A stretch of 64,000 nt of DNA from Polyangia bacterium (lineage in GTDB: Bacteria > Myxococcota_A > Polyangia > Palsa-1104 > JAEUJZ01), in assembly GCA_046351595.1 (NCBI GenBank), contig JAXLYE010000004.1:513219-577218 (forward strand), in the 5' to 3' direction. A program made the position numbers and the translations under genes. Below, one piece after another: positions 22,526-24,121 of the stretch (position 1 is the stretch's first letter; each line of letters begins with the position of its first letter). The notes below the pieces were generated by a model. It was not told the origin of the DNA. It did not search any database and saw only the letters and a list, made by a program, of their open reading frames with translations.

Positions 22526-24121
22526 ATGCCCGCCCGCCTGGACATCCTGATCACTGCCCCGTTTCCGCTCGGTGACGTGACCGCACAGCTGACGTTCCCC
22601 GACCAGAGCGTGCGTCGCGTCGTGTTACGCAGCGGCGCGCTCCAGACCGACCTGCCCGAGCTGCCCGAGCGCCTCCGGCTCCTCCACGCGCCAGCGCCTG
22701 AAGGTGAGGCCCCGCTCGCCGCGCCGTCCGAGGTCTTGCGTCCCGAGCAGCGGGAGCTCAGGGGCGATCTGGTCGAAGCCGAGGAGCTCTTCGAGCGCGG
22801 CATTCGCATTCCTGAAAGCGGCACCCTGCGCCTGCAGCTCATCTGGGGCGTGCACTGCCACCAGACCGTGACCGGCCCGTCGCTGGCGTCGAAGCTTGGT
22901 GGCGAGGTGGAGCGGCAAGCGCCGCGGTTCCTATCGGCCGAGCACGTGCGCTGTGCAGAGCGCGTCGGCATGGACGAATCGGGAATGAGGCCGCTCGCCG
23001 CCAACGGCAAGACGGCAACGTTCAACAGCAAGACCCTGCTCCCCATCGGCTCGCAGCGCGCGACCTTTGGCCAGATCATCGCGCTGGCCGGCGACTTCTA
23101 TGCGTACCTCGATGCGGCATCGCGCAAGAACAACGGCTCGGCGTGGCCCGAGGCGCCCGGCTGGGTGGAGTTCCTGGCGGGGGACTACCGCGAGCCGCCG
23201 CTCGTCGAGGACAGCTCCGCCGTCGTAAAGGACATCCTCGCCACGTTCCAGCATGAGCTCGAGCAGCTGATGCGCGGCGAGAAGCTCAGCGCGCTGCCTC
23301 AGCTCGTCGAAGGGAATCGGGTTACGGACTTCCCGGTGCGCCGCTACCTGGCGCTGGCCGGGATGAACTACTGCCACTTCGGCGCGCAGCCGCCCGACGG
23401 CAGCATCCAGGACGAGGTGAACGAGGCGTATCGCTCGTATCTCTACTATCACCGCCGTGCGCTGGCGCAGGCCGAGGTGGCGGGCATGTCGCTCGTCAAC
23501 CAGGAGGCCAAGTTCATCGAGGCGCTGGTGATCGAGGCCTTCGGCTGCCACTTCCTGACCGACCTGTTCGCGAGCGGGCACATTCGGGTGCCGCGCCGGG
23601 CTCTGGGAGAGCGCTTCGGGATCATGCGCGGCGGTCTGGGAATGGCGCACTCCATGCACGACGAGGACAACAAGCTCGGGCTGTGGTGCACGACGCGCGT
23701 GCCGCAGACGCCGCGCGTGGTGTGGCGCGCCTACGGCGACGCGATGCTGCTCAAGCCCGAGGCGGAGGCGCACCTGGCCATGATCCAGGAGGCGGTGCGG
23801 CGCTCGGCGGCCGAGGTGTTCCTGCGCTACTGCGGGGTCAGCGACGTCCCCGAGGCCGAGACCGGCGAGGCGCTGCTGCCGGTGGCGCTGGCCGCCGGCA
23901 CCGCGCCGCGCAGCGAGGACGTCCTCCCGTTCGACCTGGGGAGCCCGGACACAGAGCCTCCCAATCACTTTCCGCTGTATGCACTGGTCGATAGCGGAAA
24001 GCCGAAGCACCCGCTCATCGCCCGCCGGGCCGACGACAAGGCGCTCTACACGAACTCCTATTACGAGCAGGACGGAGACAGCGCGCGGCGCTTCTCGATC
24101 CCGCTCGCGGCGAAGCGCTGA
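22526..24121 (+). CDS. Zinc-dependent phospholipase C / S1-P1 nuclease-fold-like protein; putative effector.
   Basis: AGGAG RBS before ATG 22526. FGCHFLTDLFASGH reproduces the H-x3-D-x5-H zinc-ligand spacing of the PLC HYLGDxxxPxH motif. A downstream AHSMHDED resembles the second His/acidic ligand cluster. No signal peptide. Confidence 0.4.
   Translation: MPARLDILITAPFPLGDVTAQLTFPDQSVRRVVLRSGALQTDLPELPERLRLLHAPAPEGEAPLAAPSEVLRPEQRELRGDLVEAEELFERGIRIPESGTLRLQLIWGVHCHQTVTGPSLASKLGGEVERQAPRFLSAEHVRCAERVGMDESGMRPLAANGKTATFNSKTLLPIGSQRATFGQIIALAGDFYAYLDAASRKNNGSAWPEAPGWVEFLAGDYREPPLVEDSSAVVKDILATFQHELEQLMRGEKLSALPQLVEGNRVTDFPVRRYLALAGMNYCHFGAQPPDGSIQDEVNEAYRSYLYYHRRALAQAEVAGMSLVNQEAKFIEALVIEAFGCHFLTDLFASGHIRVPRRALGERFGIMRGGLGMAHSMHDEDNKLGLWCTTRVPQTPRVVWRAYGDAMLLKPEAEAHLAMIQEAVRRSAAEVFLRYCGVSDVPEAETGEALLPVALAAGTAPRSEDVLPFDLGSPDTEPPNHFPLYALVDSGKPKHPLIARRADDKALYTNSYYEQDGDSARRFSIPLAAKR

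Follow-up and report, generated by a model that had tools for sequence, protein, structure and literature searches.

A candidate caspase-linked proenzyme of the Legionella/Pseudomonas-type zinc phospholipase C family in a Polyangia genome

Introduction

Which protein would carry out the final step in a locus that combines caspase-like proteases with a STAND nucleoside triphosphatase (NTPase)? The question is raised by a 64,000-nucleotide stretch of contig JAXLYE010000004.1 from a Polyangia bacterium (the window), in which an intact open reading frame (ORF) is located at 22526..24121 (+ strand; stop codon 24119-24121), with GAGGAG upstream of the ATG at 22526. Its product of 531 residues is 100% identical to an NCBI-annotated hypothetical protein from a metagenome-assembled genome (MAG) of Polyangia (Myxococcota). 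An earlier note, made from the sequence alone, had suggested a zinc phospholipase C (PLC) or P1-nuclease-fold effector of a STAND-based defence locus. As judged from sequence comparison, the core of the protein is a member of a "second" zinc PLC family, the Legionella/Pseudomonas type, and most related loci carry a gene for a caspase-like protease directly downstream of the homologue. We somewhat favour the reading that the window protein is a cytoplasmic proenzyme of this zinc metallophospholipase C type, acting as the killing effector within a death or defence module built around a caspase-like protease.

Results

Conserved ligand-like residues

The segment FGCHFLTDLFASGH (residues 339-352) ends with the pattern H342-x3-D346-x5-H352 (H342-F-L-T-D346-L-F-A-S-G-H352; 23549..23581, + strand), in which the earlier note had seen the zinc-ligand geometry of bacterial PLC. 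The pattern alone is weak evidence because it arises by chance in 1.7% of shuffles of the 531-residue protein; the real evidence is conservation. In an alignment of 81 diverse relatives (22-33% identity), H342 is invariant, as are D190, H284, H378, W400, G404 and D405, and at least 90% conservation is observed for D346 and H352, as well as for E139, H140, N281, D283, H309, R354, R357 and E380. The window protein keeps every invariant column of this alignment, and its sole change at a near-invariant position is D283 to Cys. The subfamily to which it belongs has Cys in place of D283, together with conserved cysteines of its own (C111, C143 and C341).

The stretch AHSMHDED (residues 374-381, containing H375, H378 and D381) had been proposed as a further ligand-like cluster, and this is borne out by the invariance of H378 and the conservation of E380. 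Within the myxobacterial family, D381 and N382 of the extended motif A374-H-S-M-H378-D-E380-D381-N382 (23645..23671, + strand) reach at least 90% conservation. MHDED was also considered as an HD-domain signature; this was rejected because D379 is variable, being x in the consensus of the family and falling below 90% conservation in the superfamily. The candidate metal ligands are thus conserved among homologues, as the earlier note had required, being invariant or near-invariant throughout a superfamily that numbers over 3,300 sequence clusters. No signal peptide is found in the 531-residue protein, also as anticipated; residues 3-10 form a confident, folded β-strand in the AlphaFold2 model.

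Membership in the Legionella/Pseudomonas-type PLC family

Searches with the window protein against Pfam, NCBIfam, PADLOC and PDB sequences gave no match, and for Pfam none at E≤10. A database search retrieved ∼110 full-length relatives (∼480-560 residues, 38-64% identity), none of which bears a functional name, and its distant tail includes a coral protein. Full-length relatives sharing 40% identity or more come, in a species-level genome collection, almost exclusively from Myxococcota MAGs. The superfamily is much wider: a profile search of 1.84 billion representative proteins yielded 3,339 clusters (50% identity) at E≤1e-3, of which 699 were at E≤1e-30. Beyond the close family, most of the profile matches listed span only profile positions ∼130-450. 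Such core-only relatives are present in complete genomes of fluorescens-group Pseudomonas, Legionella, Coxiellaceae, Chlamydiae, Caedibacter and some actinomycetes.

Two of these relatives connect the window protein to published enzymes. BLASTP aligns it with a 434-residue "phospholipase" of P. koreensis (4e-28, 32% identity over 289 residues) and with a 405-residue signal-peptide protein of L. longbeachae annotated as "putative phospholipase C" (2e-21). Legionella PlcA/PlcB/PlcC and P. fluorescens PlcC are said to have been described by Aurass et al. in 2013 as a new family of zinc metallophospholipases C. The P. koreensis gene is flanked, by eye, by genes resembling those for dihydrodipicolinate synthase (DHDPS) and GntR, and the same DHDPS/GntR-type arrangement has been reported for P. 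fluorescens plcC (PMC2613904). P. fluorescens PlcC, a secreted lecithinase of 42 kDa, shares 43% identity with L. pneumophila PlcA, has no significant similarity to B. cereus phosphatidylcholine-preferring PLC (PC-PLC), and is secreted without a recognisable signal (PMC2613904). PlcA and PlcB are related to proteins of P. fluorescens, Caedimonas, yeast and coral, and PlcB is retained in L. longbeachae, L. gratiana and L. santicrucis (PMC6617341). All three of these Legionella species are present in our hit list, which agrees with the published relationships with regard to P. fluorescens, Caedimonas and coral as well. PlcC/CegC1 is a Zn2+ metallophospholipase C acting on phosphatidylcholine, phosphatidylglycerol and phosphatidylinositol (PMC7025538).

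The assignment of the core to this family follows from significant similarity over the catalytic region and from the presence of the conserved residues, D283 to Cys apart. By homology, the window protein would be expected to have Zn2+-dependent PLC activity and a glycerophospholipid substrate. The suggestion of a phospholipase or nuclease effector is therefore upheld in so far as the nearest relatives form a family with published lecithinase and zinc-dependent PLC activity, while the proposed membership of PF00882 or PF02265, and the PLC/P1 fold, are not established. The L. longbeachae PlcB-type and P. koreensis PlcC-type proteins have no Pfam-A or NCBIfam match, and a profile of the diverse superfamily found no match among PDB sequences. 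Both PLC families coexist in the phylum, since many classical PF00882 zinc PLCs of ∼300 residues (proteins P0302 and P0311-P0401) are likewise encoded in MAGs of Polyangia and other Myxococcota.

Relation to the classical zinc PLC/P1 nuclease fold

The window protein does not reach the gathering threshold of PF00882, and its membership of PF00882 or PF02265 is not established. When the core model is compared with the PDB using Foldseek, zinc PLCs occupy ranks 1-4, 6, 8-10, 14-16, 19, 26 and 33 (E 0.45-3.5, template modelling (TM) scores 0.2-0.35), with S1/P1-type nucleases at ranks 34 and 47 (E 0.45-4.7 and TM 0.2-0.35 for the matches listed). The full-length model gives the same enrichment of zinc PLCs. 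Across the Foldseek lists, S1/P1 nucleases appear only at ranks 29-47 with E>1. The structural comparison suggested in the earlier note thus puts zinc PLCs at the top, but at scores that do not establish the fold.

Profile comparisons point in the same direction. Among sub-threshold Pfam matches of relatives, PF00882 alone recurs (six of 81, best E 0.0028, and two of 61), and the families listed for the scanned relatives do not include PF02265. The hhalign program, run against PLC alignments, always selects the motif helix and places H342/D346/H352 on H118/D122/H128 of B. cereus PLC (P 9e-4 to 1.3e-2). In HMM-to-sequence matches (HMM, hidden Markov model), "DHF(H284)...HFLTD" falls on "SHF(H69)...HYLGD(H118/D122)" with alike spacing. 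For the remaining ligands of the B. cereus PLC-type site, a trinuclear zinc centre with nine ligands of which the N-terminal residue is one, the window protein also has collinear candidates. Against an alignment of P1, S1 and TBN1, only 11 columns are matched (P 0.14). When the PLC alignments were deepened with two more database searches, significance remained confined to the motif helix. A 19-column hhalign match to the single B. cereus PLC sequence was judged spurious, and the global mode of hhalign produced nonsense.

The order of candidate ligands can also be followed along the P1 nuclease sequence. F135-x4-H140 of the window protein parallels W1-x4-H6 of P1 nuclease, D190 parallels D45, and H284 parallels H60, with the next histidine 58 residues further in the window protein and 56 in P1 nuclease. 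H342-x3-D346-x5-H352 then corresponds to H116-x3-D120-x5-H126, followed by the next histidine after 26 and 23 residues, respectively, and H378-x2/3-D381/N382 to H149-x3-D153. Several independent, individually weak signals agree, and a distant homology to the PLC/P1 fold appears quite probable.

Domain architecture and predicted structure

The full-length AlphaFold2 model (predicted local distance difference test (pLDDT) 91.2, predicted TM score (pTM) 0.92) consists of a β-sandwich (residues 1-106), a low-confidence segment (111-130), a helical core (137-440) and short C-terminal strands (450-514). The N-terminal β-sandwich, a putative prodomain encoded by 22526..22843 (+ strand), runs from strand 3-10 to strand 100-106 with pLDDT 87-98. 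It has weak FN3-like matches in Foldseek, its HMM matches target-family proteins only, and the Pseudomonas and Legionella enzymes lack it. The combination of a β-sandwich, a helical domain and an H-x3-N element is reminiscent of lipoxygenases; this reading was rejected, given no Pfam lipoxygenase match and the clear PLC-family homology.

A linker (residues 107-134; 22844..22927, + strand), delimited by model confidence and alignment, joins the β-sandwich to the core. It begins with W107-G-x-x-C111-H112 and continues as a variable segment ending at R134. Model confidence drops here, to a mean pLDDT of 52-57 over residues 111-130 and to less than 50 at 113-116. In the family alignment, C111 is present in 96 of 96 members, and positions 113-133 are rich in insertions and deletions. 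The helical catalytic core (residues 135-445; 22928..23860, + strand) is the part homologous to P. fluorescens PlcC and the Legionella PlcB-type phospholipase C, and a core-only model (residues 135-460) reaches pLDDT 94.3. The C-terminal extension (residues 446-531; 23861..24118, + strand) contains short strands (452-454, 485-488, 497-501 and 512-514 by DSSP). It is subfamily-specific, and its HMM again matches target-family proteins only. The N- and C-terminal domains have no other occurrence in the examined loci.

The R134↓F135 junction

A predicted processing site, R134↓F135 (22925..22930, + strand; the arrow marks the junction), separates the linker from the core. F135 is found in 96 of 96 family members and a basic residue precedes it in 94 (Arg in 90, Lys in four and Leu in the remaining two), that is, in 98% of the subfamily versus ∼31% in the wider superfamily. 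Disorder is predicted for the ∼20 residues before R134, which differ in both length and sequence between members. A basic residue before F135 at the end of a variable, disordered linker is the signature of a processing site, and cleavage would be expected there. Together, the prodomain, the variable linker and the near-invariant junction suggest that the window protein is a zymogen. The junction is also seen in a metagenomic fusion to CHAT (P0144, described below) and in Pseudomonas enzymes (LR↓FEGxEH).

The residue five positions before H140 is aromatic across the superfamily (Phe in 93, Tyr in nine and Trp in five of 116 representatives). In four representatives, and in the locus ORFs L049, L080, L085 and L130, the initiator Met stands at the Phe position (M1-E-S-A-E-H). 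In several exported members, a hydrophobic leader, identified by eye without a predictor, ends right before the Phe (...GNA↓FHSYEH, ...AFA↓FESYEH, ...TMA↓FEGFEH and ...GLS↓FSGFEH); the leader appears to end there in L034 and L086, and L072 and L142 look alike by eye. In PLC and P1 nuclease, the free amino group of Trp1 binds zinc, and the position of the superfamily Phe at the true N-terminus of several relatives can be likened to this behaviour. It is possible, if doubtful, that a cut after R134 would free the α-amino group of F135 as a ligand of a trinuclear zinc site, in the way of Trp1, and that C111-H112 may mask this site before the cut, like a cysteine switch.

Caspase-like proteases as partners in related loci

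To place the window gene in context, we compared 26 distinct loci with enough sequence downstream of a homologue. A gene for a caspase-like protease lies directly downstream on the same strand in 22 of the 26, often overlapping the stop codon of the homologue by 4-14 bp. The partner is either a CHAT-type protein of ∼600-950 residues (twice matched by Pfam Gasdermin_protease) or a Peptidase_C14 protein. In the window and in L168, a C14 gene is found a few kb upstream instead. STAND-like NTPases occur in about seven of 27 loci (among them L001, L007, L009, L012, L013 and L170); for this reason, the STAND protein is an accessory to the PLC-protease pair rather than a fixed part of it. The notion of a STAND-based defence locus consequently needs to be modified: an nSTAND1-WD40 gene does lie upstream in the window, but the partner conserved across loci is the caspase-like protease, with STAND proteins in only about a quarter.

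Individual loci illustrate the variation. L007 has the same order as the window (CHAT, nSTAND1-WD40, target) at only 39% identity, plus a downstream Gasdermin_protease gene. P0144, a metagenomic protein of 1,777 residues, combines SLOG (LD_cluster3), an LCAT-like lipase domain and CHAT with a complete target module in a single polypeptide, and keeps "...CH...SESR↓FNSWEH". At the L170 locus (872-9900), the PLC homologue is followed by a Gasdermin_protease gene and by genes for TIR-kinase-AAA_16 and AAA_16/NACHT proteins, representing a different sensor set with the same pair. In two loci, L006 (14624-16129, - strand) and L169 (8782-10092, - strand), a Neprosin-family peptidase is encoded on the opposite strand from the PLC homologue and some kb downstream of it. 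In L169, the homologue is followed by 1.5 kb without a called gene or detectable caspase-like sequence.

Genomic neighbourhood in the window

The candidate sensor or switch of the window locus is an nSTAND1 NTPase with WD40 repeats (1652 residues; 17233..22191, + strand), with a Pfam nSTAND1 match at residues 131-502 (E 6.3e-95) and WD40 repeats from residue ∼737. Its start is overlapped by 14 bp by the gene for a CHAT-type caspase-like protease (15525..17246, probable start ATG 15549, + strand; Pfam CHAT E 6.8e-12, PADLOC "chat" 2.7e-11), whose product keeps the dyad motifs HFSAHG and LNACYS. A Peptidase C14 gene of the caspase/orthocaspase type lies on the opposite strand (13192..15519, probable start M70 at 15312, - strand; Pfam Peptidase_C14 E 1.9e-23, PADLOC "caspase" 2.1e-22) and encodes the dyad motifs FYAGHG and FDCCHS. 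Homologues of this C14 protein adjoin target homologues in L008 and L091. The earlier note had placed the target immediately downstream of the NTPase-WD40 gene; it is indeed downstream, but the genes do not abut, being separated by a 334-bp spacer (22192..22525) in which no σ70-like promoter, terminator or Rfam match was detected. BLAST and HMM searches revealed no adaptor (death-like) domain shared among the target, STAND, CHAT and C14 proteins.

The segment with the caspase, CHAT, STAND and PLC genes (8000-32000) has a G+C content of 65-70%, versus 72-77% in the flanks, which hints at a horizontally acquired island. About 700 bp past the target, a convergent gene (24819-26435, - strand) encodes a sedolisin-type protease with a Pro-kumamolisin activation domain and an S8/S53 domain. 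One distant member of the PLC superfamily carries a Pro-kuma_activ domain (E 2e-8), and the family may be connected with a further type of processing protease. A second signalling NTPase nearby is a 1,361-residue protein (3121-7206, - strand) in which an adenylate/guanylate cyclase domain precedes an AAA_16 (STAND-like) ATPase.

Other features of the window lie outside this locus. A reverse-transcriptase ORF (457-2160, + strand; RVT_1, 1.3e-17) is preceded by two direct repeats of 97 nt (207-303 and 393-489, 73% identity). These were rejected as the template/variable repeat pair of a diversity-generating retroelement, as their 26 mismatches show no adenine bias; a retron or a group II intron would be a possible identity for the reverse-transcriptase locus. 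A collagen-triple-helix-repeat protein (26363-27892, + strand), with internal 300-nt repeats at 27192-27491 and 27564-27863 (85% identity), adjoins the gene for a vWA-domain protein (27945-29885, - strand). A Ser/Thr protein kinase fused to a Peripla_BP_5/6 periplasmic-binding-protein domain is encoded at 42526-45513 (+ strand), and GC skew is strongly negative at 52-60 kb of the window.

Discussion

Proposed mechanism and alternatives

As a killing effector in proenzyme form, the window protein would act as follows. A trigger would be sensed, in the window locus probably via the nSTAND1-WD40 NTPase, and a caspase-like protease would become active: here CHAT (15549-17246) and/or C14 (13192-15312), and in most relatives the product of the translationally coupled gene directly downstream. 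The protease would cut the exposed linker at R134↓F135, freeing the N-terminal β-sandwich prodomain. The mature enzyme, starting at F135, would carry H140, D190, H284, H309, H342, D346, H352, H378, E380/D381 and D405, and would hydrolyse membrane glycerophospholipids from inside, killing the cell as in abortive infection or programmed lysis. Of this scheme, the homology to characterised PLCs, the conserved ligand-like residues, the arrangement of domains and the linkage and fusion to caspase-like proteases are observed, whereas catalysis, substrate, zinc, the cut at R134↓F135, the trigger, the part played by the STAND protein and the outcome for the cell are inferred.

Several observations weigh against this scheme. 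In the models, the structural match of the core to PLC is statistically insignificant. Directly after the target, the window has no protease gene, the next gene being the convergent sedolisin; the C14 and CHAT genes are 5-9 kb upstream. Given this distance and the 334-bp gap after the STAND gene, co-regulation in the window is an assumption. Two of the related loci, L011 and L169, have no caspase-like gene. CHAT proteases are not known to be specific for Arg, and those from other systems do not cut after it in every case, which leaves a specificity for the R↓F junction unproven. With regard to F135, many superfamily members have Gly or another non-basic residue before the Phe, and P. fluorescens PlcC has been reported to be secreted "without cleavage" (PMC2613904), so that a free N-terminus cannot be a universal requirement.

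One alternative is an effector of the STAND/caspase locus that is not a protease substrate, acting in parallel with the protease or being switched on by binding to the activated STAND or protease complex or to a small molecule, with the R↓F junction having a structural role. Gene linkage by itself does not show a protease-substrate relation, F135 is conserved superfamily-wide whatever precedes it and may be a plain core residue, and the full-length model is compact (pTM 0.92). Nevertheless, we hold this alternative to be unlikely, in view of the strong preference of the subfamily for a basic residue before the Phe, the location of F135 at the end of a disordered, length-variable linker, and the homology of the partner proteases to gasdermin-activating proteases. 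The protein might instead be an exported toxin or digestive enzyme for myxobacterial predation, with the STAND gene being incidental and the neighbouring protease acting as a maturation factor. Classical zinc PLCs are made as propeptide precursors whose processing creates the catalytic N-terminus, and the Listeria PlcB proenzyme is activated by a protease, with Mpl as its maturation protease. The characterised relatives are secreted virulence or degradative enzymes, and the secretion of P. fluorescens PlcC without a recognisable signal (PMC2613904) would accommodate a protein such as this one. What makes export improbable is the folded β-strand at the N-terminus in place of a signal peptide, the linkage or fusion of several C14/CHAT partners to STAND, TIR, SLOG and NACHT-type modules typical of intracellular conflict systems, and the recurrence of the CHAT-STAND-target order in L007 despite the low identity.

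The chemistry could also differ from that proposed. An S1/P1-type enzyme that degrades nucleic acids would agree with the aromatic-x4-His spacing, which is that of P1 nuclease (W1...H6) and not of B. cereus PLC (W1...H14), and S1/P1-type nucleases are among the weak Foldseek matches. But the sole relatives with published activity, the Legionella and P. fluorescens members, are phospholipases C, nucleases rank below PLCs in the Foldseek lists, and the sub-threshold Pfam matches are to PF00882, with PF02265 not among the families listed; a nuclease has little probability in our view. Finally, some of the two-gene modules lie among ordinary metabolic genes (L171 and L172), as might be expected of a housekeeping enzyme of lipid metabolism or an inactive relic unrelated to cell death. 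The conservation of every ligand-like residue, the tight pairing with caspase-like proteases and the patchy distribution, with full-length copies (≥40% identity) in the species-level collection almost confined to Myxococcota MAGs, render this explanation very improbable.

Implications

The catalytic family is already known, as is the type of system in which a protease and an effector are combined, sometimes under a STAND/NLR-like ATPase, including systems where phospholipase/endonuclease effectors replace gasdermin. What appears to be new is the PlcA/B/C-type family in the role of an intracellular effector, the prodomain architecture with an invariant R↓F site, the fusion to CHAT, and the proposed link to the N-terminal ligand of PLC/P1 enzymes. 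If the proenzyme reading is true, a membrane-degrading metalloenzyme zymogen joins the short list of effectors of bacterial caspase-like protease/STAND systems, with a precise cleavage site. The virulence family of Legionella PlcA/B/C and P. fluorescens PlcC, with its coral and fungal relatives, would then be linked to bacterial self-killing, hinting at a common origin of exported toxins and suicide effectors. Myxobacteria lyse many of their own cells in development, and the module could bear on programmed lysis as well as on phage defence.

If the F135 amino group does act as proposed, bacterial caspase-like proteases would have a second, enzyme-type executioner beside gasdermin, and the Legionella/Pseudomonas/coral PLC family would be placed within the PLC/P1 fold. 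P0144 offers a ready-made single polypeptide for self-processing. The superfamily of more than 3,300 clusters, Chlamydiae, Coxiellaceae and coral included, is without a Pfam, NCBIfam or PADLOC model or a solved structure.

Comparison with known systems

The closest known system is formed by the PlcA/B/C enzymes and P. fluorescens PlcC, which share significant homology over the whole helical core of the window protein, including the motifs F-x3-E-H, ALAGDFY, N-x-D/C-H-F, AF-x-x-HFLTDLF-x-SGH-x-R-x-PR, MHDED and W-x-A-YGD. The same chemistry, metal-dependent hydrolysis of phosphatidylcholine, phosphatidylglycerol and phosphatidylinositol, would be expected of the window protein on the basis of this similarity. 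The known enzymes leave the cell via Sec, Tat, Dot/Icm or another, unknown route to act on host or foreign membranes, whereas the window protein has no export signal. It further differs in its extra N-terminal β-sandwich, linker and C-terminal extension, in the pairing with a caspase-like protease, in the replacement of D283 by Cys, and in the subfamily-specific C111, C143 and C341.

The classical zinc PLCs of PF00882 (B. cereus PC-PLC, C. perfringens α-toxin and Listeria PlcB) have H-x3-D-x5-H at a helix end and a collinear "xHF" in common with the window protein, and are the top-ranked PDB folds for its core model. However, the window protein has no Pfam match, the hhalign and Foldseek comparisons are not significant overall, and its core is ∼80 residues longer. 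The S1/P1 nucleases (PF02265) share the aromatic residue five positions before the first His, as well as the order of His/Asp ligands with similar spacings.

At the level of the locus, the window resembles the nSTAND1 conflict systems of multicellular bacteria (Kaur et al. 2021, PMC8195603) in having, within a Myxococcota genome, an nSTAND1-WD40 NTPase gene together with caspase and CHAT genes. The paper on these systems makes no mention of a phospholipase effector (PMC8195603).

The gasdermin and CARD/NLR-protease systems share the placement of an effector gene beside a caspase-like protease, with an optional STAND/NLR-like ATPase. Bacterial gasdermin systems are reportedly the subject of a 2021 preprint by Johnson et al. 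The partner proteases in loci related to the window carry Pfam Gasdermin_protease/CHAT annotation, as in gasdermin systems, and adjacency to a caspase-like protease is observed in 22 of the 26 related loci and in one fusion, while the C14 and CHAT genes of the window are upstream and not adjacent. The target has no gasdermin match in Pfam or PADLOC, and its model is that of a helical enzyme fold. In protease-NLR systems, gasdermin can be replaced by phospholipase/endonuclease effectors (Wein et al., PMC10312443). The window protein is a PlcA/B/C-type metalloenzyme, and so neither a gasdermin nor the phospholipase-endonuclease fusion tested in that study (PMC10312443). The proposed inhibitory part would be N-terminal, as opposed to C-terminal in gasdermin systems.

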